10,648 bases of DNA from a virus (lineage: Duplodnaviria > Heunggongvirae > Uroviricota > Caudoviricetes): IMG/VR virus record IMGVR_UViG_2529292735_000010; one strand, written 5' to 3'. The position numbers and the translations under genes were made by a program. Positions 1 to 10,648 of this stretch are shown here, piece by piece. The notes beneath the pieces were generated by a model. The model was not told the origin of the DNA, made no database searches, and saw nothing but the letters and a program-made list of their open reading frames with translations. Each line of letters opens with the position of its first letter. The first letter of the stretch is position 1.

Positions 1-1
1 C

Positions 2-166
2 ACACGCGCCCTGATTCTGGAGCGTTACCGCGATGCGGACACAACGGACAAGGGCGACCGCCGGGCGGACGCACTGGATATACAGACATCGGATTTGTGG
101 CGCGATGTGAGCTGGGCCATCTCTGACATTCTGTGCCGCCCGCGAATTTTTGCGGAGCTGTGCTGA
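2..166 (+). CDS. 3' end of a head completion/stabilization-like gene (P2 gpL position); 5' end lies outside the window
   Basis: Frame 2 is open from the window edge to TGA at 164-166, which overlaps the ATG of the next gene (TGATG). Translation ends ...DILCRPRIFAELC. The call rests on position immediately upstream of the X-like gene (P2 synteny) and on recollection, not on a search. Confidence 0.4.
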   Translation, partial: TRALILERYRDADTTDKGDRRADALDIQTSDLWRDVSWAISDILCRPRIFAELC

Positions 167-367
167 TGAAAGTGAAGGCACTGGAAGGCGACACCGTGGA
201 TTCGCTCTGTTTCCGGTTACTACGGCACGACGCAGGGCGTCACCGAAAAGGTGCTGGATGCCAACCCCGGATTCTGTCAGCAGGTATTTCTGGACGCCGG
301 GCAGGACGTGGAGATGCCGGAGCCGGAGAAGAAGAAACGAGAAATGATTCAGTTGTGGGGGGAGTAG
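166..367 (+). pseudogene. X: Tail protein X (P2 gpX-like, LysM-type), apparently disrupted by a +1 frameshift near 217-218
   Basis: ATG at 166 gives MKVKALEGDTVDSLCFR. After an extra T at about 217-218 the adjacent frame reads YYGTTQGVTEKVLDANPG...EMIQLWGE and stops at TAG 365-367, just before the holin start. The gpX-like start and end are therefore in different frames. Because the original frame stays open, the ORF track fuses it with the holin as 133..693. Confidence 0.5.
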
Positions 368-369
368 CA

Positions 370-693
370 GTGAGCACCATTCAAACAGGGATCACAGAGC
401 AGGTTATTGCGTGGCTCTTTGACCACCTGCCAACGGTGTATGCAGTAGGCGCGGCAGTCAGCATTTCCGCGCTGATGAGTCTTTATGACGGACGAACACT
501 GGTTCAGACCGTAACGGGATCGCTGGCGTGCGGCGTTCTTGCCATGGCCGTGGCCGGGTCGTTGCGCTTCTTCGGTTTTCCTGAAGATGCCGTGACGTTT
601 ATCGGCGCATCAATCGGTTTTATGGGCGCAGAGAAAGCACGCGACAAGGTTATTGCAGCCTTTAATCGCAGGGTGAAGGAGAAGGACGAATGA
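370..693 (+). CDS. Holin (about 107 aa, three predicted hydrophobic segments and a highly charged C-terminus)
   Basis: GTG at 370 lies 6 nt downstream of GGGGGAG. Hydrophobic stretches VIAWLFDHLPTVYAVGAAVSISALM, VTGSLACGVLAMAVAGSLRFF and VTFIGASIGFMGA are followed by EKARDKVIAAFNRRVKEKDE. The stop overlaps the endolysin start (ATGA), and the gene sits directly upstream of endolysin and spanins. Confidence 0.55.
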   Translation: MSTIQTGITEQVIAWLFDHLPTVYAVGAAVSISALMSLYDGRTLVQTVTGSLACGVLAMAVAGSLRFFGFPEDAVTFIGASIGFMGAEKARDKVIAAFNRRVKEKDE

Positions 694-1083
694 GCAACAC
701 ATTTAAATTCAGCAGCCGGAGCGAAAAGAATTTGCAGGGCGTAAATCCTGATCTGGTGAAAGTGACCCGACGGGCACTGGAAATTTCGGAAGTGGATTTT
801 GGTATCACAGAAGGGTTGCGCAGCCGTTACCGCCAGAAGCAACTTGTGGCCACAGGTAAGAGCCAGACCATGAACAGCCGCCACCTTACGGGACATGCCG
901 TGGATGTTGTGGCTTATATCGGTAGCCAGGTGTCATGGGAATGGCCGCTGTACGAAAAAAATCGCAGCAGCATTCAGACAGGCCAGCCGGGAACTGAATA
1001 TTCCGGTGGAATGGGGCGGCGACTGGAAGACCCTGAAAGACGGACCGCATTTTCAGTTACCACACGGAGCCTATCCGGCATGA
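690..1083 (+). pseudogene. Endolysin, peptidase M15-type (L-alanyl-D-glutamate endopeptidase-like), with an apparent frameshift in an A7 run at 955-961
   Basis: The N-terminal part (frame of 690) reads MSNTFKFSSRSEKNLQGVNPDLV...SRHLTGHAVDVVAYIGSQVSWEWPLYEK. The C-terminal part is in the +1 frame (ORF 895..1083): KKIAAAFRQASRELNIPVEWGGDWKTLKDGPHFQLPHGAYPA. It contains the His/Asp residues expected of M15 zinc peptidases (HxxxxxxD and DGPHF). The junction coincides with GAAAAAAAT, and removing one A would give ...PLYEKIAAAF... in one frame. AGGAG lies upstream of ATG 690. Confidence 0.65.
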
Positions 1084-1637
1084 AGCTCTGGCCCACGCTG
1101 GGCGTCGCTTTCCTTCTGATTGCTGGATGGGGAACATCCATGCGTCTGTCGTGGTCGCTGGGCCGGGAGAACGCCAGAAACGAAGCGCAGGCCAGCACCC
1201 TGAAAAGTACCGTCGACACCCTGAATATCATCAGCGCCGGGGTACAGGATATGCAGCAGGTGCTGGCGCAACTCCGCGTGGAAAATCAGCAACGCAATCA
1301 GGACGGAGAGGTCAGACGTGAACAGCTACGCAACGATATTGCAAAAGATGAATGCGCCCACGCTTTGCCTGACGCTCGTTTTACTGACAGGTTGCGCAGG
1401 CACGCAGAACGCGCCACGGCCAGCGCCGTCAGTCCGGCTTATACCGCAGACGCTGACCATTCCGGTAACGCCGCCCCCTTCCCTGATACTCCCACATGGG
1501 GAAATCTCGGTATATGGGGCGACCGCCTTCTGGATGCACTGGAAACCTGTAACGCGGATAAACGGGCCATTGAATTACTGGAACAGCGCAGGCTGCAACG
1601 ACTGAACAACGAGGATAACAACCATGCTGAAAACTGA
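1080..1637 (+). CDS. Rz-like inner-membrane spanin (i-spanin, LysB-like)
   Basis: ATG at 1080 overlaps the endolysin stop (ATGA). The N-terminal transmembrane segment LWPTLGVAFLLIAGW is followed by a long charged, Q/R-rich periplasmic region (coiled-coil-like). A spanin partner gene is embedded in its +1 frame. Confidence 0.65.
   Translation: MKLWPTLGVAFLLIAGWGTSMRLSWSLGRENARNEAQASTLKSTVDTLNIISAGVQDMQQVLAQLRVENQQRNQDGEVRREQLRNDIAKDECAHALPDARFTDRLRRHAERATASAVSPAYTADADHSGNAAPFPDTPTWGNLGIWGDRLLDALETCNADKRAIELLEQRRLQRLNNEDNNHAEN
1318..1605 (+). CDS. Rz1-like outer-membrane lipoprotein spanin (o-spanin, LysC-like), embedded in the +1 frame of the Rz-like gene
   Basis: ORF 1318..1605 lies entirely within 1080..1637 in another frame. 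It carries a signal peptide with a lipobox (LTLVLLTGCAG) and a proline-rich mature region (PRPAPSVRLIPQTLTIPVTPPPSLILP), typical of Rz1-type o-spanins. The true start may be the internal ATG at 1348. Confidence 0.55.
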   Translation: MNSYATILQKMNAPTLCLTLVLLTGCAGTQNAPRPAPSVRLIPQTLTIPVTPPPSLILPHGEISVYGATAFWMHWKPVTRINGPLNYWNSAGCND

Positions 1638-2091
1638 TTCCCTGCGTGAAGCCATGACCCGTTCATGCCGATGGTGTCAGGCCAACCCGGAAAAATTCAC
1701 CATTTTCGTGGAGAGCGGCAACATTGAAACGACCGGAGAAACCCCATCGTTTGTTTACCGCTATCAGATGGTGATGTTTGTCATGGATTACGCCGGGGAG
1801 CTGGACGACCTCACGCTGCCGCTACTGGCGTGGTTATCCGAAAATCAGCCGCAATTGTTGCTCAATCCGGAGCGTAATCAGGACATCAAATTCTCCGCCG
1901 TTATCAATGACGATGACAGCGCCGATCTCCTGTTTACGCTCCCCCTGCGGGAACGCGTTCGCATCACGCGCAGCAGTCAGGGCACACCGCAGGCAGAACA
2001 CCTGCCGGAGCCAAAACCCCGCCTGCCATCTTCCGAAGGCGACTGGTCGCATGTATTCCAGGATGTGACGTGGGGTGAAAGCGATGGATAA
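1624..2091 (+). CDS. R: Tail completion protein (P2 gpR-like)
   Basis: 155 aa ORF with GAGGA 9 nt upstream of ATG 1624. It overlaps the end of the spanin gene and occupies the gpR position before the S/V/W/J/I block. The length matches gpR as I recall it. Confidence 0.7.
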   Translation: MLKTDSLREAMTRSCRWCQANPEKFTIFVESGNIETTGETPSFVYRYQMVMFVMDYAGELDDLTLPLLAWLSENQPQLLLNPERNQDIKFSAVINDDDSADLLFTLPLRERVRITRSSQGTPQAEHLPEPKPRLPSSEGDWSHVFQDVTWGESDG

Positions 2092-2719
2092 GGCATTCAC
2101 CCGCGTGGATGAAACCTTTGAGGCTATCCGCGACAGCCTGAATCAGCAGGCCATCAATAACATCGCCAGAAAGCTGGCACAGGATTTACGTCGCGCCCAG
2201 CAGGCACGTATCCGGTCACAGAAAGCGCCGGACGGGACTGCATGGACACCACGCAGACGCCGCGTAACCCGGATACAGGAGCGCATTCGCTTTATCTGGA
2301 ATAACGAAGCACGCACGCTGAAAAACTGGCATCACGACACGGGGAAATACGGGCGAACCATTACCGGGTGGGATGAGGATAAAAACAGTATCCGCACGTT
2401 TTACCGGGATGACATCGACCGTTTTCTGGAAATACGCACCCGGCGCATCAACCAGGACAGCACCAGGCGCGTCCCCATGTTCGTAAAACTGCGCACCGCC
2501 CGCTACCTGAAAGCCCGTGCAGATGCTTCCGGTGTGACGGTGGGTTGCAGCGGCGTGGCCGCACGTATTGCCCGCGTTCATCAGTTCGGTGAGCGCGATC
2601 AGGTTGCGCTGGGCATTTTCACCGATTACCCGGTACGTGAGCTGTTGGGTATCAGTCAGGCAGATGAACGCCTGATTTATAACACGGTGCTGGGCCGGAT
2701 TGCGGAGGCTGTACGGTGA
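2084..2719 (+). CDS. S: Tail completion / virion morphogenesis protein (P2 gpS-like), longer than I recall for gpS
   Basis: ATG 2084 overlaps the R stop (ATGGATAA). The C-terminal region has gpS-like motifs (KLRTARYLKA...ARIARVHQFGERD). Its stop overlaps the V start (GTGA). The ORF track begins at GTG 2075, but I prefer the ATG. Confidence 0.6.
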   Translation: MDKAFTRVDETFEAIRDSLNQQAINNIARKLAQDLRRAQQARIRSQKAPDGTAWTPRRRRVTRIQERIRFIWNNEARTLKNWHHDTGKYGRTITGWDEDKNSIRTFYRDDIDRFLEIRTRRINQDSTRRVPMFVKLRTARYLKARADASGVTVGCSGVAARIARVHQFGERDQVALGIFTDYPVRELLGISQADERLIYNTVLGRIAEAVR

Positions 2720-3297
2720 GCGCAGAACTCATGCGACTGCTGAGCAATATCATCCGCACCGGGATCATCTCTGAAGTTGATGAGAAGTCCTGGTGCGTGC
2801 GCGTTCGCAGCGGCGAACTGGAAACAGGCTGGTTACGCTGGAACACCACGCGCGCGGGAGCCTTCAATGTGTGGCTGCCGCCATCACCAGGCGAACAGGT
2901 GGTAATTGCCTGCATTGGCGGCAACCCGGAAACCGCCATGATAATTGGCAGCCTGTGGAGTGATGCCAGTCCGGCCCCCGGCAAAAGCCTGAAAGAAATC
3001 GTGGTCAGCGCGCCGGATGGCGCGGTGTTCCGCTACGACGCGGACGCAGGCGCACTGAGCGCCAGCGGCATGAAAACGGCCACCCTGCAGGCATCCGTCA
3101 GCGTGACACTGGATACGCCCGTCGTGGAATGCACAAACCTTCTGAAAACAGCCGAGATTGACGTCACAAAAGGGGGAAAGATGAGCGGCAATATCACGCA
3201 CAGCGGCGGCGATTTCACCTCAAACGGCATCACAGTGCATACGCATAAGCACGGTGGCGTTAAAGGTGGCAGCGATTCGACAGGAGGCCCGCAGTGA
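2716..3297 (+). CDS. V: Baseplate assembly / spike protein (P2 gpV-like)
   Basis: 193 aa with gpV-like motifs (IRTGIISEVD..., WLPPSPGEQVVIACIGGNPETAMIIGSLWS, C-terminal HTHKHGGVKGGSDSTGGP). GTG start overlaps the S stop. Confidence 0.8.
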   Translation: MSAELMRLLSNIIRTGIISEVDEKSWCVRVRSGELETGWLRWNTTRAGAFNVWLPPSPGEQVVIACIGGNPETAMIIGSLWSDASPAPGKSLKEIVVSAPDGAVFRYDADAGALSASGMKTATLQASVSVTLDTPVVECTNLLKTAEIDVTKGGKMSGNITHSGGDFTSNGITVHTHKHGGVKGGSDSTGGPQ

Positions 3298-3644
3298 CAA
3301 CCCGCTACACAGGAATGAACCCGGACGGAACGGGAAACCTGAACGATATGGAGCACCTGAAACAGTCAGTCAGGGACATCCTGACCACCCCGCTGGCAAG
3401 CCGGGTTATGCGACGGGAATATGGCAGCCTTGTGCCTGATTTGATTGACGAACCCATGAATAACACCACGCGTCTGCAATGCATGAGTGCTGCCGTGATT
3501 GCACTGACACGATGGGAACCCCGCATTGCCCTGGACGCCATCGACGTTGTCTGGAAAGCAGGAGGCCGCGCCGGGGTGACGCTGTCGGGCACTGTCATGC
3601 AGACCATGCTGAATGTTGAATTAACCATCACGCTGAGGGAGTAA
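3294..3644 (+). CDS. W: Baseplate protein (P2 gpW-like, GPW/gp25 family)
   Basis: 116 aa. GTG at 3294 overlaps the V stop (GTGA). Size and position between V and J match gpW. Confidence 0.75.
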   Translation: MTTRYTGMNPDGTGNLNDMEHLKQSVRDILTTPLASRVMRREYGSLVPDLIDEPMNNTTRLQCMSAAVIALTRWEPRIALDAIDVVWKAGGRAGVTLSGTVMQTMLNVELTITLRE

Positions 3645-3646
3645 TC

Positions 3647-4543
3647 ATGCCTGCCGTTGACCTTTCCCAGTTACCGGAACCCGCCATCATCGCGGAGCCT
3701 GACTTTGAGGCAATTCTGGCTGACACAAAGGCCATGATGATTGCGTCCTATCCTGCCGAACAGCGTGAAGCCGTCTCCGCCGCGCTGGAGCTGGAATCGG
3801 AACCCCTGAACGTTATCGCTCAAACCATGTCTTTTCGTGAAATGCTGTTACGCCAGCGGGTCAATGAGGGTGCACGCGCCTGCATGCTAAGCCACAGCGC
3901 CGGGACAGACCTGGACAACCTCGCGGGCAATATGAACACAAAGCGCCTGGTTATCACTCCGGCAACGGATACCACCGACGCAGTGATGGAAAGTGACACC
4001 TCGCTGAGACTACGGGCGCAACGGGCATATGACGGTCTGAGTGTTGCTGGCCCGTCAGGTGCATACGAGTATTTTGCACGCAGCGCCAGCGGTCTGGTAC
4101 GCGATGCGCGGGCCATCAGCCCGTCTCCGGCCAACGTGACGGTTTCCATCCTGTCCACTGAGGGCGACGGCACAGCAACGGAGGCGTTGCTTAATACCGT
4201 TCGCGCCGTTCTGAATGCAGAGGATACCCGCCCGGTGGCCGACCGCCTGACCGTACAGAGTGCCAGAATCGTGACATGGCGGCTGAATGCAAAACTGTAC
4301 TTTTACCCCGGTCCGGAATCCGAACCTATTCTGGCCGCGGCGGAATCGTCATTCAGGAAGTGGCTGGCTGAACAGGGGCTTATCGGTCAGGACGTGGCGT
4401 TGTCCGCCATTGCTGCCGCACTTCATGTACACGGCGTGCAACGCGTGGAGATAATCGAACCCACACAGAATATGGCCATCAGCGACATACAGGCGGCGCG
4501 CTGTGAGTCATTCACCATCAGCGAAGGTGGGCGTAATGAGTAA
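3647..4543 (+). CDS. J: Baseplate wedge protein (P2 gpJ-like)
   Basis: 298 aa ORF starting 3 nt after the W stop. Size and synteny match gpJ (about 300 aa). Confidence 0.8.
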   Translation: MPAVDLSQLPEPAIIAEPDFEAILADTKAMMIASYPAEQREAVSAALELESEPLNVIAQTMSFREMLLRQRVNEGARACMLSHSAGTDLDNLAGNMNTKRLVITPATDTTDAVMESDTSLRLRAQRAYDGLSVAGPSGAYEYFARSASGLVRDARAISPSPANVTVSILSTEGDGTATEALLNTVRAVLNAEDTRPVADRLTVQSARIVTWRLNAKLYFYPGPESEPILAAAESSFRKWLAEQGLIGQDVALSAIAAALHVHGVQRVEIIEPTQNMAISDIQAARCESFTISEGGRNE

Positions 4544-5066
4544 TTCACTGTTACCGCCATCAGCCAGCAGTTTCATGCGTTGTGCCGAAGCTGTCGGAAC
4601 GCGCATTACAGACATCCCGGTAGACCTCAACACACTGTGGTCACCAGATACCTGCCCGGTGCATCTGCTGCCTTATCTCGCCTGGGCATTTTCCGTTGAC
4701 CGCTGGGATCGCAACTGGCCGGAAGAGACAAAGCGACAGGTTATTCGTGATGCATGGCTGATACACCGACACAAAGGGACCATCAGCGCACTGCGCAGGG
4801 CCATTGAACCACTGGGATACCTCATTCGCGTGTCTGAGTGGTGGGAGTTCGGCGGAGAACCGGGAACATTTACCGTTGAAGTCGGCACACTGGACAGTGG
4901 TGTGACGGAGGAAATGTATCTGGAAATGGAGCGGTTGATTGCTGATGCCCGTCCGGTCAGCCGCCACATGACAGGGCTGAATATCATTCAGGAAATTCCG
5001 GGGAATATTTTCGCAGCGGCGGCAACTTATGACGGTGAAGTTATTACCATTTATCCAGGCGATTAA
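4536..5066 (+). CDS. I: Baseplate / tail protein (P2 gpI-like)
   Basis: ATG at 4536 overlaps the J stop (ATGAGTAA), with GAAGGTGGG upstream. It gives a 176 aa product, the length I recall for gpI. The ORF track's earlier GTG at 4503 is less likely. Confidence 0.75.
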
Positions 5067-5068
5067 GT

Positions 5069-6916
5069 ATGAGTACCACAACACGAAAATTTAAAACCGT
5101 TATCACCGATACGGGTGCAAAAAAATTAGCACAGGCAGCCGCGCCAGATGGTAATCCTGTCCGCCTGACACATATGGCCGTGGGTGACGGCGGCGGTACT
5201 TTACCCACGCCAGACAGTAAGCAGACTCGTCTTGTGCATGAGGTGTGGCGACATACTGTTAATCGCGTCTTCCTGGACGCAACACATCAGAACCGCATTA
5301 TTGCGGAGCTGGTTATTCCTCCTGAAACGGGCGGATTCTGGATCCGGGAAATTGGTGTGTTTGATGAGCACGGCGATTTGATCGCGGTGGGCAATACTGC
5401 CGAAAGTTACAAGCCAACCGTTGCCGAAGGGTCCGGACGTGCACAAACATTTCGCACCATTCTGACCGTATCCAGCACTGCCACCGTGGCGCTTACCGTG
5501 GATAACACCATGGTGATGGCCACAGTGGATTACGTGGATGACAAACTGAAAGAGCATGAACAGTCACGACGTCACCCGGACGCCTCACTGACCGCAAGAG
5601 GCTTTGTTCAACTCAGTAGCGACACTAACAGCGTGTCTGAAACACAGGCTGCAACACCAAAGGCGGTAAAGGCAGCATATGACCTTGCTAACGGGAAATA
5701 TACCGCTCAGGACGCCACGACAGCACAAAAAGGGATTGTCCAGCTAAGCAGCGCGACTAACAGCACATCTGAAACGCTTGCCGCGACACCGAAAGCAGTG
5801 AAAGCAGCTAATGACAATGCGAATGGTCGGGTACCTTCTGCCCGTAAGGTGAATGGTAAGGCGCTTTCAGCGGATATTACACTGACGCCGAAAGATATTG
5901 GTACGCTTAACTCAACAACTATGTCATTCAGCGGTGGTGCTGGTTGGTTCAAATTAGCAACGGTAACCATGCCGCAGGCGAGTTCTGTTGTTTCAATTAC
6001 GTTGATTGGTGGCGCGGGATTTAACGTGGGGTCACCTCAACAGGCAGGTATATCTGAACTTGTTTTGCGTGCAGGTAATGGTAATCCGAAGGGGATTACT
6101 GGTGCTTTATGGCAGCGCACATCGACAGGGTTTACAAATTTTGCCTGGGTCAATACATCAGGTGATACTTACGATATTTACGTTGCAATCGGAAATTATG
6201 CGACTGGTGTAAATATTCAATGGGATTATACCAGTAATGCCAGCGTGACGATTCATACGTCACCAGCATATTCTGCTAATAAGCCGGAAGGGTTAACGGA
6301 CGGTACAGTTTATTCACTCTATACGCCATCAGAGCAGTTTTATCCGCCTGGCGCACCAATCCCGTGGCCATCAGATACCGTTCCGTCTGGCTATGCCCTG
6401 ATGCAGGGGCAGACTTTTGACAAATCTGCATACCCGAAACTTGCAGCGGCTTATCCGTCAGGCGTGATCCCTGATATGCGTGGCTGGACGATTAAGGGCA
6501 AACCTGCCAGTGGTCGAGCCGTATTGTCTCAGGAACAGGACGGCATTAAATCGCACACCCACAGCGCCAGCGCATCCAGTACGGATTTGGGGACGAAAAC
6601 CACATCGTCGTTTGATTACGGAACTAAATCCACAAATAACACCGGAGCACATACACACAACTTTGCTTACAACAATACTTCAGCATACGCAGAAACTCCC
6701 GGTACCGGTGGTGGAATGCATGCAACTAACACAAACAAGGCAGCAAGTAATCGCGTATTAAGCGCAGGAGCTCATACTCACACCGTAGCAATAGGTGCGC
6801 ATACACATAAGCTCGCTATTGGTTCGCACACACACACCATTACCATTGCCGCTTATGGCAACGCGGAAAACACCGTAAAAAACATCGCATTTAACTATAT
6901 TGTGAGGCTTGCATAA
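5069..6916 (+). CDS. H: Tail fiber protein (P2 gpH-like N-terminus with a divergent HxH-rich C-terminal receptor-binding region)
   Basis: 615 aa. The N-terminal ~250 aa is gpH-like ([22 protein letters not shown]..., [15 protein letters not shown]...) and includes the characteristic duplicated [20 protein letters not shown] motif. The C-terminal third carries repeated GAHTH/SHTH motifs. Confidence 0.9.
5600..5830 (+). repeat. Two tandem, diverged copies of a ~44-codon coding repeat inside the tail fiber gene
   Basis: Copy 1 (about 5600-5698) encodes [33 protein letters not shown]. Copy 2 (about 5732-5830) encodes [33 protein letters not shown]. The period is about 132 nt. Confidence 0.8.
6550..6840 (+). 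repeat. HxH-motif-rich short coding repeats in the tail fiber C-terminal region
   Basis: The DNA has recurring GCNCAYACNCAYAC-like units encoding SHTHS, GAHTHN, GAHTHT, GAHTHK and SHTHT within about 290 nt. Confidence 0.7.
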
Positions 6917-7515
6917 TGGCATTCAGAATGAGTGAACAACCACGAACCATAAAAATTTATAATCTGCTGGCCGGAACCAATGAATTTATTGGTGAAGGTG
7001 ATGCATACATTCCACCTCATACAGGTCTACCTGCAAATAGTACTGATATTGCTCCGCCAGATATTCCAGCTGGCTTCGTGGCTATTTTCAACAGTGATAA
7101 GACGTCCTGGCATCTCGTTGAAGATCATCGTGGTAAAACGGTTTATGACGTGGCATCAGGGGGCGCGTTATTTATTTCTGAACTTGGTCCATTACCGGAA
7201 AATGTCACCTGGTTATCCCCGGAAGGGGAGTTTCAGAAGTGGAACGGCACAACGTGGGTGAAAGATGCAGAAGCAGAAAAAGTGTTCCGGATACGGGAGG
7301 CGGAAGAAACAAAAAACAGCCTCATGCAGGTAGCCAGTGAGCATATTTCGCCACTTCAAGATGCCGTAGATTTGAATATTGCAACAGAGGAAGAAACATC
7401 GTTACTGGTGGCATGGAAGAAGTATCGAGTGCTGCTGAACCGTGTTGATACATCAAGAGCACCGGATATTGAGTGGCCAGCTCCCCCAGTGGAATCAAGG
7501 AGTAAACAAGCATAA
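6916..7515 (+). CDS. G: Tail fiber assembly chaperone (P2 gpG / Tfa-like)
   Basis: 199 aa. ATG overlaps the H stop (TAATG). The C-terminal region ([32 protein letters not shown]) is typical of Tfa chaperones. It lies immediately downstream of the fiber gene. Confidence 0.85.
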
Positions 7516-7549
7516 AGGCTTTCATTTCAAACCATTGTAGTCCAGTTTT

Positions 7550-8254
7550 TTGTATAGTACCCTGCTCATTTCGGATGACATGTGTGATTTGGAATTTCAG
7601 GGTACCATTATGAATGTTATTTCATCATTAAAACAGCTTAACAGACAGCGAAATATTAAAACAAAAAAGATAAAGACGAAGGCCAGACTGGCATTTCTAA
7701 AAATGCGATACAGAAGGAAAACATCATTACAGCCGGATAGTTATAAAACAGTGTGCATTTTCATGCACATGCAAGCCATTGGTGACGGCATCGTTACCTC
7801 AGGGTTTATTAAACAACTTCAAAAATCCGGTATGGTGGTATATGTGATAGCACCTTCAAGAGTATCATTCCTCTTTACTGATATTGTTGGCGTGGATGCC
7901 TTTATATCTTACGAGAAAAATAAATTTAACGAACTAAAAGCAAAGATAAAAAAACTGAATGTAGATCTTGTTGTTGACTTCTCAAATTTTGATAACACAG
8001 CGATAACCAGATTGCAAACACTACATTTACTTAGACCTAAACACTCTATCTGTTTTAATCATCCTGCCGTAACTATTTTTGATACAAATATAATCGATAA
8101 TCGTTCCATTCACACATCTGAAAGAATGAAAAAAGTTTTATCTTTACTAAAGATAAAAAATAACAATTATGCTGCAGCGCTTAATTTTGACAACAAAATA
8201 TATGAACCAGCAAATATTGTTGCAAATGAATTCAGGAAGAAAAACAAAAATTAG
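7550..8254 (+). CDS. Glycosyltransferase family 9-like (heptosyltransferase-like) protein, N-terminal portion; the reading frame ends at TAG 8252-8254 inside an A-rich tract
   Basis: The segment KTVCIFMHMQAIGDGIVTSGFIKQLQK...VDAFIS...LNVDLVVDF resembles the N-terminal GT9 domain (conserved (A/L)GD motif after the first beta strand, then a hydrophobic D-L-V-(I/V)-D segment). The ORF track start is TTG 7550. ATG 7610, preceded by AGGG, is the more plausible start. Confidence 0.6.
   Translation: MYSTLLISDDMCDLEFQGTIMNVISSLKQLNRQRNIKTKKIKTKARLAFLKMRYRRKTSLQPDSYKTVCIFMHMQAIGDGIVTSGFIKQLQKSGMVVYVIAPSRVSFLFTDIVGVDAFISYEKNKFNELKAKIKKLNVDLVVDFSNFDNTAITRLQTLHLLRPKHSICFNHPAVTIFDTNIIDNRSIHTSERMKKVLSLLKIKNNNYAAALNFDNKIYEPANIVANEFRKKNKN
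7557..7605. promoter_or_regulatory. 8-bp perfect inverted repeat (GTACCCTG ... CAGGGTAC) spanning the putative ribosome-binding site just upstream of ATG 7610
   Basis: GTACCCTG at 7557-7564 and CAGGGTAC at 7598-7605 are separated by a 33 nt spacer. The distal arm overlaps the AGGG candidate Shine-Dalgarno sequence of the island gene. Confidence 0.25.
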
Positions 8255-8367
8255 TTATATTTAACCCTTATGGCTCTCAGAATAGCAGAACCTTATCTGA
8301 TGAACAGATAAACAAAGTACTAGCTTACCTTAATAACCTTAAGGGATATCACACAATAGTTTTTAAT

Positions 8368-8787
8368 ATGGGAAAACAGATTAATCACAATGGATTGGAT
8401 AATGTGTCTCTATCTCCATTTTCTGATGCCGGATGTTCATTTGCATTGGTTCGCCATGCTGATTTTGTTATAACTGTAGATACTGCTATTGTACATTTAG
8501 CCAGTGCATTAAACATTAGACAATACTGTATATATAATAACAGAATGCATGAAGGAAAATTCGAAAATAATATTGTGTGGGGGCCAAACAGCAAATTAGC
8601 GACTCAACTCACCACATCCGAACATCTAAGGTCTGAAGGGGGCGACGATATGCATAAATTCGACATAATGATCTTAATTAATGCTATCAAACAAGATTTG
8701 ACAAACGATATACCGAATTACCACTCGGATTTAGGTTGTAAAAATAGATCCAGAAACCCAGAATTAGAAAGTAGCAATTCTTTATAA
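8368..8787 (+). CDS. Glycosyltransferase family 9-like protein, C-terminal portion (frame open upstream to 8230, overlapping the end of the previous fragment)
   Basis: The frame reads ...KQKLVIFNPYGSQNSRTLSDEQINKVLAYLNNLKGYHTIVFNMGKQ...SPFSDAGCSFALVRHADFVITVDTAIVHLASALNIRQYCIY. This matches the GT9 C-terminal pattern (short NPG(A/S)S-type stretch, then hydrophobic-A-D-hydrophobic-hydrophobic-I-x-x-D-(S/T)-x-x-x-HLA-x-A-L). The frame is open for about 46 codons upstream of the first ATG in AT-rich DNA, which is unlikely by chance. Confidence 0.6.
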   Translation: MGKQINHNGLDNVSLSPFSDAGCSFALVRHADFVITVDTAIVHLASALNIRQYCIYNNRMHEGKFENNIVWGPNSKLATQLTTSEHLRSEGGDDMHKFDIMILINAIKQDLTNDIPNYHSDLGCKNRSRNPELESSNSL

Positions 8788-8840
8788 AGTAGAAACCTCA
8801 ACAGTTTTATCAGGACCTACTATATATTATATAACAACAA

Positions 8841-8874
8841 GCCGCCCATTACCCAATATGAGGGTATTAGCGGC
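8841..8874 (-). terminator. Candidate intrinsic terminator hairpin in the convergent intergenic region (downstream of U on the minus strand)
   Basis: GCCGC(8841-8845)/GCGGC(8870-8874) outer stem and TACCC(8850-8854)/GGGTA(8862-8866) inner stem with a 7 nt loop. On the minus strand the hairpin is followed by TTGTTGTTAT. No clean U-tract follows on the plus strand. Confidence 0.3.
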
Positions 8875-8883
8875 AATGTAAAA

Positions 8884-9378
8884 TCAGAATAGTCCTTTAA
8901 CTGAACTGGCCGCGCTGTTAAGGGATGATGTGACCTTATCTTTGAAGCCGGACAGCATATCACTGAACGATGAGGATTGCAGACGCTCCCGCAAGTCCTC
9001 ATCACAGCGTTCAAGGGTCAGTGAAAATTCTATCTTTTTCGCCTTACCGTAGCGATCAAACTCGGAACGGGTCGTATTCGTTTCAGTCAGTACATACATG
9101 CCGTAAATCTGCCCGACACCATCAATCAAAGGCCAGGGTCGTCCTGTATACGCCTGCGTGGTCAGCAGCGACAGCGACACTTCGCCACCTGTAATTTCAG
9201 GATAAAGCACACCAGAAAGCACGATGCGCTCATCACCTGCACCGATATACTGCCAGCTTGCTGAACGGTTAACGCGTTCATTTTTCACATGCCGCCAGCT
9301 TTTGTTTTGCTGTAACTGCTGATGCGGCAGCGTGCGCAGCTCAAAAACAAACATGCCGTAGATCATCATCATGGCCAT
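8884..9378 (-). CDS. U: Tail protein U (P2 gpU-like)
   Basis: 164 aa minus-strand ORF. The N-terminus (MAMMMIYGMFVFELRTLPHQQLQQNKSWRH) and internal VLSGVLYPEITGG and RPWPLIDGVGQIYGMYV resemble gpU as I recall it. GAGGA lies upstream of the ATG, which is 6 nt downstream of the T stop. Confidence 0.7.
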   Translation of the reverse strand: MAMMMIYGMFVFELRTLPHQQLQQNKSWRHVKNERVNRSASWQYIGAGDERIVLSGVLYPEITGGEVSLSLLTTQAYTGRPWPLIDGVGQIYGMYVLTETNTTRSEFDRYGKAKKIEFSLTLERCDEDLRERLQSSSFSDMLSGFKDKVTSSLNSAASSVKGLF

Positions 9379-9384
9379 GACTCC

Positions 9385-10648
9385 TCAATCTTTATCGTAA
9401 AAACTGCCACGCCCGGCACGAGCGCGCCGTTCCATTTCTGCCCTGACCATTTCACCGACCAGTTTCGCCAGTTCGCGGGGATTCTGCGTAACAACGTTAT
9501 GCAGATGAACATGAATTTCACCGCCAAATCCGGAGGCAACAGGCTCCCGGTTACGGGAAGTTGCAGGAACTGATGCCACTGGCGATCGTATGGCCTCTGC
9601 CACCGGGCGGGAGCTGGCCGCAACAACAGGGACCAGCGCCGGAGGCAGCGGAGCCGGAACCACAGGTGTGATATTAATTGCGGGGGCAGGCTTACTGACC
9701 TGCGCAACCTTCCGCTCCTGCCACTCCCCACGAACAGCCAGTGCGCGGGGCAGGTTCTTAAAGACAATATCGCCGGGGCCAATGCGTTTTTTCGTCTCAT
9801 CAACCAGCTTACCTGTGTTATCAGCAATTTTGCTGAGTCTGCGTAGCGTGCCGGTATTGCTGTCTGTGAGCGGTTTGTTGTCTTTGGGTTTATCACCTCC
9901 GGTGCCATTGCCATTTTCCACAGGCTTCGGCGGATTGATTTTCGCCAGGTCCCCCTGAAGCAAGGCAACCTTGTCCTGAAGAATGGCCGCACGCTGTGCG
10001 TCTTCGATTTTCTTGCGCGCCTTTTCCGCTTCATCCGGAAGGACGCCAAGTTTTTCAAGTATCCACGCCAGCGTATCCAGTAGCATTTTTGCAGGTGTCA
10101 GAACAAGCTGTAACGCACCGCCAAGAACGTTACCGAATATCTCGCCAGCACTGGTACATTTATCCAGCGTTTCCTTGCTGGACTCCATCGGTGACAGCAG
10201 CGATTTAAACCAGTTAAACACCTGGCTGATCCCGCTTCCGATTGCGTCAAAAACAGGACCAAACCGTTCAAAGGTTTCGCGCAACGGGGTCAGCCTTTCC
10301 ATAATCCCGCTGAACACCCCGGCAAAAAATAGCCCTGATGGGATCCCAGTATTTCCAGATAAGTACGGCAGCTCCGGCAAGCGCAGCCACGATAAGACCA
10401 ACCGGACTGAACAGCGCCCCGATAGCGCCTCCCAGTAAAGAAACGGAACCCGTCACCATTCCCCATAGTGCTGGCAGGACCCTGACAGCATTCATTGATC
10501 CGGTCAGGAGAGAAAAACCAAGACGCAGTTTTGCCAGCGGACCAGCAAGCACACCAATAGCCAGCGACAACGAGCCAACCGTTGCAGTCATTGCCAGCAA
10601 CGCACCGCCTGCTATCAGTAGCTGGCGCGTCAGTGCCGGATGGGCCTG
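9385..10648 (-). pseudogene. T: Tail tape measure protein (P2 gpT-like), C-terminal ~420 codons; 5' end outside the window; apparent frameshift in a homopolymer at 10324-10329
   Basis: Two minus-strand ORFs in different frames (10268..10600, open to the window edge, and 9385..10401) overlap at a T6 run (A6 on the + strand, 10324-10329). The upstream part is a glycine/alanine-rich hydrophobic tape-measure-type segment (GAIGALFSPVGLIVAALAGAAVLIWKYWDPIRAIF). The downstream part continues (F)AGVFSGIMERL... with coiled-coil-like and proline-rich regions. Removing one T joins them as ...DPIRAIFAGVFSGIMERL.... Confidence 0.75.

Follow-up and report, generated by a model that had tools for sequence, protein, structure and literature searches.

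Gene content of the window

The window, by which we mean the whole 10,648-nt stretch of DNA analysed here, is contig AIHM01000045.1 (10,648 bp) of the draft assembly GCA_000250455.2 of Escherichia coli DEC14C. Its content is the late region of a prophage that resembles P88 and belongs to the P2 family. The late genes stand in P2-family order, which the window shares with phage P88 and with E. coli prophages of the genus Xuanwuvirus (Peduoviridae, P2 family), and nucleotide identity to P88 and to many E. coli prophages is 96–97%, for P88 over the shared parts. The order L, X, holin, M15, LysB/LysC, R, S, V, W, J, I, H, G is the same in P88, and in both the genes U and T follow G on the opposite strand. 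The hallmark Pfam families looked for (Phage_tail_X, Phage_holin_3_1, Peptidase_M15_4, DUF2570/LysC, GpR, tail S, V, W/gp25, J, I, GpU and tape measure) were found on the gene calls of the window and on its repaired proteins. LysB/DUF2570 scored below the Pfam cut-off (19.3 bits vs 26.6). T, only part of which lies in the window, had no match in Pfam but is 98–99% identical to full-length T proteins.

On the plus strand, the window begins with the 3′ end of the head completion gene L (1–166; PF05926, Phage_GPL), which aligns with L of the relatives and is cut by the 5′ edge of the contig. It is followed by the frameshifted tail protein gene X (166–367), an intact holin gene (370–693; PF05106, local score 107/107 against a relative's protein), the frameshifted gene for an M15 metallopeptidase endolysin (690–1083) and a broken LysB (DUF2570) with the overlapping LysC (1080–1637). 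The tail and baseplate genes R, S, V and W (1624–3644) are intact, with near full-length single-frame matches and Pfam support. The stop codon of W and the W–J spacer (3642–3646) carry a neutral 1-base deletion, recognised by comparison with relatives. Further downstream, J, I, H (tail fibre) and G (tail fibre assembly) are intact (3647–7515) according to protein matches to relatives. At the place that a DNA invertase and an alternative tail-fibre cassette occupy in P88, the window has an AT-rich moron (GC 0.30–0.35) encoding a family 9 glycosyltransferase (GT9; 7610–8787). The gene is frameshifted in the window, and the GT9 variant itself is shared by 48 or more complete E. coli genomes. On the minus strand lie the intact tail protein gene U (8884–9372), which matches relatives and whose exact protein occurs on many contigs, and the 3′ part of the frameshifted tape measure gene T (9385–10648; residues about 516–935), which is cut by the 3′ edge of the contig.

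Six single-base indels

Using proteins of intact relatives as tblastn queries against the window, we obtained frame maps that bear out the four frameshifts of the original prediction (X, endolysin, GT9 and tape measure) at the places where it had put them. Its list was incomplete: a fifth gene-breaking event lies in LysB/LysC and a neutral one in the W–J spacer, and compared with its relatives the window has six single-base indels. Likewise, the view that the remaining late genes are intact proved right for the holin gene and for R, S, V, W, J, I, H, G and U and wrong for LysB/LysC.

In X, residues 1–17 are encoded in frame 1 and residues 18–66 in frame 2, with the junction at 217/218, where a single T is doubled (GGTAC to GGTTAC). 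The single T is present in 48 relatives and TT in the window only; the repaired protein has 66 aa and matches PF05489 over residues 1–52. The M15 endolysin is split between frame 3 (residues 1–90, 690–959) and frame 1 (residues 89–130, 955–1080) by a change from A6 to A7 at 955–961, again with A6 in 48 relatives and A7 in the window only. After repair, the protein has 130 aa, and its match to PF13539 (residues 58–123) bridges the break point. In LysB/LysC, C6 has become C5 at 1474–1478, which moves the final LysB residues into the LysC frame and splits LysC, stranding its N-terminus (from 1369 or 1441) in a different frame. The resulting LysB–LysC fusion ORF (185 aa, 1080–1637) yields a product found on the contig of the window only; C6 is the state of 52 relatives, and C5 was seen in the window only. 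Repair restores a LysB of 135 aa and a LysC matching over 65/65 residues.

The spacer between W and J has lost one of three A residues (TAAATC to TAATC at 3642–3645), which shortens it from 3 to 2 nt and preserves both the stop of W and the start of J. A3 is found in 55 relatives and A2 in the window and one other locus. For GT9, residues 1–213 lie in frame 2 (7610–8248) and residues 209–392 in frame 1 (8233–8784), and the tract A5CA6 has become A5CA5 at 8240–8250; the region spans 1362 nt in at least 40 complete genomes and 1361 nt in the window. The repaired protein has 392 aa and matches PF01075, and the truncated product occurs on one other contig, where it is of independent origin. T is read in frame −1 for residues 516–623 (10648–10325) and in frame −2 for residues 618–935 (10341–9388). 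Here an extra A at 10331 turns A6-T-G into A6-T-A-G and leaves the A6 at 10324–10329 unchanged; 35 relatives carry A6T-GCC, the window alone carries A6TA-GCC, and repair gives a single open frame as far as the stop. Overall, repair of the six bases results in full-length proteins that match those of relatives and their Pfam families.

Relatives, sequence context and selection

The comparison with close relatives went the way of the original prediction. In a census of indel states at 75 other loci, with 35–52 informative relatives at X, M15, LysB/LysC and T, the states TT, A7, C5 and A6TA were found in the window alone. The A2 spacer and the A5 GT9 tract each occurred once more, on unrelated backgrounds (loci L055 and L006, respectively). 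This recurrence is an observation that speaks against consensus error as the source of the indels; both variants can therefore arise, or be miscalled, independently. It would also fit a mixed case, in which most of the indels are errors and one or two are real, with the W–J spacer and the GT9 A-tract as candidates: a spacer change is selectively neutral, and the phage can do without a moron glycosyltransferase. We regard this case as unlikely in view of the GT9 comparators. L018, from the independent assembly GCA_017760365.1, has no mismatch to positions 6606–9305 of the window over 2,700 nt and differs from it only in having A6 instead of A5, which leaves its GT9 intact at 392 aa. The longer tract is moreover the one present in the at least 40 complete genomes mentioned above. 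L006 is a single large contig 99.97% identical to E. coli strain 165, which has A6; its GT9 deletion is therefore private as well and may likewise be an artefact of assembly. Since L018 carries all private changes of the window within 6606–9305, these are real alleles.

GT9 is the only one of the six sites with an identical comparator; elsewhere the nearest relatives are 98–99.4% identical. Over the first 1,750 nt, 11 substitutions and 3 indels separate the window from L070, the nearest relative of the left arm. We also scanned a viral contig collection for the private SNPs of the window beside each site, leaving the run length free. For M15 this yielded two contigs, both with A6, and for T one contig, in which the extra base is absent, while no contig matched at X or LysB/LysC; no long stretch of any of these contigs was identical to the window. 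In exact protein look-ups, H (615 aa) and S (with either its 211-aa or its 214-aa start) occurred on no other contig. The 188-aa form of V was unique, and its 193-aa form was found on five short contigs about 98% identical to the window. The exact J, I and U proteins are too widespread to point to close relatives, and J has an identical copy in more than 3,000 blocks of the collection.

The same census bears on functional recoding, that is, a programmed frameshift, transcriptional slippage or contingency tracts that switch genes on and off. The P2 family does have a programmed frameshift, which lies in E/E+E′ and outside the window (GpE genes were seen adjoining T), and A7 runs permit a low level of transcriptional slippage. 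However, every relative is in frame at every site and the two-frame arrangement is conserved in none of them; moreover, the tracts are short (1–7 nt) and near-invariant in length, no site showing more than one exception among the strains. We gave recoding hardly any credence, and programmed frameshifting and phase variation were rejected on the census of relatives.

The excess of indels in the window over natural variation is real: indels make up 6 of about 65 private differences in the window and 0 of 229 private differences in the relatives (Fisher p = 1e-4). Three of the six events (M15, LysB/LysC and GT9) are length changes of 6-nt runs, that of T adjoins an A6 run, and those of X and the W–J spacer affect runs of 1 and 3 nt. 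Of the 14 runs of at least 6 nt in the window, four are affected or adjacent, a strong over-representation of long runs. The original prediction had placed all events at homopolymers, which applies to M15, LysB/LysC and GT9 and fails for X and T. The signature is thus not one of homopolymer length alone, with two events at runs of 1–3 bases and one beside a run. One of the six indels falls into a non-coding spacer, as would be expected if the indels are blind to function.

The substitutions point to a lineage under purifying selection. In positions 1–5560 the private substitutions comprise 28 synonymous and 10 non-synonymous changes and no stop codon; four of the latter belong to an allele of V that also occurs in 28 viral contigs. 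The private cluster at 3146–3157 in V had at first been suspected of being a set of further errors, a view rejected on the basis of its exact motif in those 28 contigs. In the right arm, 9 synonymous and 11 non-synonymous changes were counted, the latter clustering in the host-range genes H and G. The spectrum of private substitutions is mainly G:C to A:T, and no IS element, large deletion or private nonsense mutation is present within the contig.

These data have to be set against genuine recent decay, in which the P2-like prophage of DEC14C would be cryptic and would have been inactivated very recently, in five genes, by real single-base frameshifts arising through slippage after selection was lost, with the GT9 A6 tract as a recurrent hot spot. 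The mutations would possibly have gathered in a mismatch-repair-deficient phase. If so, DEC14C and GCA_015476785.1 would have acquired the change in the GT9 tract independently of each other, and the tract would act as a crude on/off switch for a gene that modifies surface sugars. We consider such decay very unlikely. In its favour, real bacterial indels concentrate in homopolymers, which real slippage also prefers, and an identical comparator is absent at five of the six sites; the possibility of very recent real mutations at these five sites, where the nearest relatives are 98–99.4% identical, is a point against consensus error. Related prophages do decay: L012 and L016, two loci of the Shigella type, have a split capsid gene in common, and L006 and L017 have a large deletion from the capsid genes to I. 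However, inherited decay is shared, as in L012 and L016, whereas the lesions in X, M15, LysB/LysC and T occur in no other assembly, and the comparison with L018 gave one indel and no substitution. Private changes are mostly synonymous, whereas neutrality would predict about a 3:1 excess of non-synonymous ones, and the contig lacks private stops, IS elements and large deletions. Furthermore, the changes from T to TT and from A6T to A6TA are atypical of run slippage. Mismatch-repair mutators show an A:T to G:C bias, and a mutator lineage was rejected by the substitution spectrum.

The cryptic P2-like prophages of Shigella boydii Sb227 (L012) and E. coli strain 165 (L017) resemble the window in that their late genes are interrupted, from which one would predict a defective element. 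Their lesions, among them large deletions and IS elements, are common to independent assemblies. Unlike these, the lesions of the window are unique in four of six cases and recur once on an unrelated background in the other two; every one affects a single base, and the contig also bears the mark of purifying selection.

Probable consensus error and prophage annotation

Taken together, the sequence comparisons indicate that the six single-base indels are most likely consensus errors in a draft contig rather than gene decay. All tests that were run, namely the census of relatives, L018 and the mostly synonymous changes, agree with the preference of the original prediction for sequencing error over decay. 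On this explanation, base calling or consensus building would have miscalled run lengths (A6 to A7, C6 to C5, A6 to A5, A3 to A2 and T to TT) and placed a spurious base beside a run (A6T to A6TA). X, the endolysin, LysB/LysC, GT9 and T would all be intact in the real prophage, and the predicted failure to lyse cells or to build tails would be false. The cause could lie in a flow-based platform or in low coverage, or in a repeat left poorly resolved where one genome carries several P2-like prophages. Flow-based sequencing chemistry is linked to run-length errors.

Several features of the window resemble the consensus errors of early draft genomes: single-base indels are enriched at longer runs, with insertions and deletions mixed; an extra base copies the preceding run past an intervening base; the indels fall without regard to gene function; and at four sites the change was seen in a single assembly. 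They differ in that two of the six events lie at runs of 1–3 bases. Six consensus errors per 10.6 kb are also a high rate for a consensus of finished quality, a point that speaks against error; if the indels are errors, the contig would therefore be poorly covered.

Taken at face value, the contig describes a prophage unable to lyse its host (endolysin, LysB/LysC) or to build tails (X, T) and carrying a dead glycosyltransferase. This prediction of a dead prophage and a dead glycosyltransferase is probably false. Protein databases already list the fragments separately, for example the 214-aa GT9 piece as “hypothetical protein” (EHX89413.1 / WP_001439976.1). The value of the finding lies in annotation hygiene, and early drafts such as this one will inflate pseudogene counts, predictions of prophage viability and pan-genome gene counts. 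Two checks can be transferred to other cases: whether the same lesion is present in independent assemblies, and how many private indels there are for each private substitution in comparison with relatives.

Six single-base differences from related prophages

The window corresponds to contig AIHM01000045.1 (10,648 bp) of the draft assembly GCA_000250455.2, whose proteins carry the source name Escherichia coli DEC14C (EHX89411.1; locus tag ECDEC14C_2020). This name points to the drafts of the diarrheagenic E. coli (DEC) collection (Hazen et al. 2012). An exact-protein look-up for tail-fibre protein H returned no record besides the window's own contig. Its nucleotide sequence shares 96-97% identity with phage P88 (Xuanwuvirus, Peduoviridae) as well as with numerous E. 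coli prophages, and like P88 and related prophages the window carries L, X, holin, M15 endolysin, LysB/LysC, R, S, V, W, J, I, H and G, followed on the complementary strand by U and T. The prophage is of an ordinary, well-known kind. Position 1 lies inside the head-completion gene L and position 10648 inside the tape measure gene T; these breaks suggest that the assembly stopped where this prophage and a second P2-like element of the genome become too alike. Complete genomes with any match contain a median of two matching places.

The original prediction named frameshifts in X, the endolysin, a family 9 glycosyltransferase (GT9) gene and T, all at homopolymers. Alignment to four annotated relatives together with tblastn frame maps confirmed these four, but six single-base indels separate the window from all four relatives; a gene-breaking event in LysB/LysC and a neutral one in the W-J spacer had been missed. 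Column-wise inspection against 13-17 relatives at five sites, and against five relatives at GT9, gave their exact anatomy. GGTAC has become GGTTAC in X (217/218), A6 has become A7 in the M15 endolysin (955-961), C6 has become C5 in LysB/LysC (1474-1478), TAAATC has become TAATC in the spacer (3642-3645) and A5CA6 has become A5CA5 in GT9 (8240-8250). In T, GGCAAAAAAT-GCCC reads GGCAAAAAATAGCCC; the A6 run itself is unaltered and the added A comes after the T, at position 10331. When intact proteins of relatives were searched against the window by tblastn, X, M15, LysC, GT9 and T continued in a second frame at the indel points. Loss of the C lets the LysB frame run through into that of LysC, giving a 185-aa LysB-LysC fusion ORF (1080-1637) which gene callers label a DUF2570 protein and whose product was found on no other contig of the collection searched. 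The holin gene and R, S, V, W, J, I, H, G and U are intact, as had been predicted for all of these but the holin gene.

Three insertions and three deletions leave the net length unchanged. Three of the six indels are length changes of long runs, and the placement of all events at homopolymers is only partly right. With the six indels reverted, the window contains 14 runs of six or more bases, three of which had changed length while a fourth abuts an inserted base; shorter runs, of 1-3 bases, number about 7,700 and hold only two events. This repair (an extra T, A and A removed, a missing C, A and A put back) restored single ORFs for X (66 aa), M15 (130 aa), LysB (135 aa), LysC and GT9 (392 aa) and a continuous frame in T, with proteins nearly identical to those of relatives. 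The former breaks lie within or next to Pfam domains in repaired X (Phage_tail_X, residues 1-52, break at residue 17/18), M15 (Peptidase_M15_4, residues 58-123, break around residue 90) and GT9 (Glyco_transf_9, residues 206-312, break around residue 213). If the lesions were real, the genes hit would be dead.

Distribution of the variants among relatives

A comparison with close relatives, which the original prediction had proposed, was carried out by anchored matching in 75 further loci from complete genomes, draft assemblies, Logan and ENA assemblies and viral contigs. Four variants occur only in the window: TT in X (a single T in 48 loci), A7 in M15 (A6 in 48), C5 in LysB/LysC (C6 in 52) and A6TA in T (A6T in 35). 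The other two recur once each, in an unrelated background. The two-A spacer (A3 in 55 loci) is also present in a relative of ~93% identity (L055, IMGVR_UViG_2802429248_000008), and this neutral deletion may be natural polymorphism, or the same error may have occurred two times. The A5 state of GT9 (A6 in five loci) recurs in L006, a locus of GCA_015476785.1 (10001-10645). L006 is 99.97% identical over 10.4 kb to the locus of strain 165, in which GT9 is intact, and its GT9 segment lacks the window's three private SNPs. The deletions in the window and in L006 are therefore independent, and the one in L006 either arose anew or was miscalled independently at this tract. Given that both states recur, the spacer deletion and the GT9 tract could be real among otherwise erroneous indels, which we regard as unlikely.

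The closest comparison is provided by L018 (DADSNU010000119.1 of GCA_017760365.1), the one other contig encoding the window's G protein with its several private amino-acid changes. Across window positions 6606-9305 it shows no mismatch in 2,700 bases and has every private SNP of this stretch; the sole difference is one extra A in its GT9 tract, which yields the intact 392-aa protein. On this alignment, the GT9 frameshift appears as a lone difference on otherwise identical sequence. The GT9 insert (7550-8800) is AT-rich, with a GC content of 0.30-0.35 compared with 0.43-0.61 in the remaining window, and in P88 its position is taken by a DNA invertase together with an alternative tail-fibre cassette. 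This prophage variant is carried by at least 48 complete genomes. Among the matches listed, 40 complete E. coli genomes have a GT9 span of 1362 nt, against 1361 in the window, and 99.2-99.7% conservation of the cassette.

At the other sites no relative identical to the window was found. L070, a related locus, is separated from the window by 11 mismatches and the window's three indels over the first 1,750 nt, and is free of mismatches over 751-1000, where the M15 tract lies; L039 reaches ~99.2% identity in the first 1,700 nt, L040 and L071 are ~99% identical in the T segment, and five short contigs encoding the window's V protein are ~98% identical. All of these are intact at every indel site they cover. 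A further relative of ~98% identity, L072 (Logan SRR27143725), differs by a single base of its own close to where gene R begins, aligned near window position 1629, and R is called there with a length of 210 aa, not 155 aa. Relatives are all in frame and show essentially no variation in tract length, which contradicts programmed frameshifting or phase variation and makes this explanation extremely improbable. Most likely, the frameshifts are not a biological feature.

Indel excess and purifying selection

Multiple alignment of the left arm with 12 relatives gave 122 private differences among them, none of them an indel column, compared with 38 private substitutions and four indels in the window. 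Pooled over three aligned blocks, relatives show no indels among 229 private differences, compared with six among ~65 in the window (Fisher p = 1e-4). The indel excess over substitutions is statistically clear. Within 1-5560, 28 private substitutions are synonymous and 10 non-synonymous, one site being counted in both overlapping lysis genes, and none creates a stop codon. The right arm has nine synonymous and 11 non-synonymous private substitutions, the latter mostly in H and G, both host-range genes. The lineage shows purifying selection. The private substitutions are mostly G:C->A:T, an ordinary mutational bias; mismatch-repair mutators produce an excess of A:T->G:C instead.

Four of the 10 non-synonymous changes fall in a 12-nt patch of gene V (3146-3157), where five private changes turn the GCGACGC of most relatives into GCCGAGA, resembling a compensated +1/-1 pair. 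We considered this patch as a further error and ruled it out: as 28 viral contigs have exactly this motif and five other contigs encode the V protein of 193 aa, it is a natural allele.

Unlike the window, decayed relatives have lesions common to independent assemblies. The P2 capsid gene is split in both L012 (Shigella boydii Sb227, CP000036.1; 4017-5068) and L016 (4015-5066), cut at the same place into 60-aa and 290-aa pieces, apparently a case of genuine decay passed on by descent; similarly, L006 and the strain 165 locus (L017) have a capsid-to-I deletion in common. The window's lesions are inherited from no sampled relative, and its contig contains neither an IS element nor a large deletion. 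Genuine recent decay would have to bring five or six indels without one substitution in the 2.7 kb common to the window and L018, and with no other mark of decay in the contig; we consider it very unlikely.

Origin of the indels and consequences for the contig

The variants unique to the window, the identical, independent L018 sequence free of the GT9 lesion, the indel excess and the purifying selection favour sequencing error over decay, as originally proposed. The six indels are quite probably consensus errors of the draft contig, and they are blind to coding status. They would comprise miscalled run lengths and an extra copy of a run's base one position past an intervening T. Both patterns fit flow-based chemistry, which was often used for early drafts of this kind, and such chemistry at low coverage may have been the source. 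Alternatively, the consensus may have been badly resolved among several P2-like prophages of one genome. Public protein databases contain gene fragments of AIHM01000045.1 that are probably artefacts, and defects in lysis and tail assembly should not be inferred from this contig.
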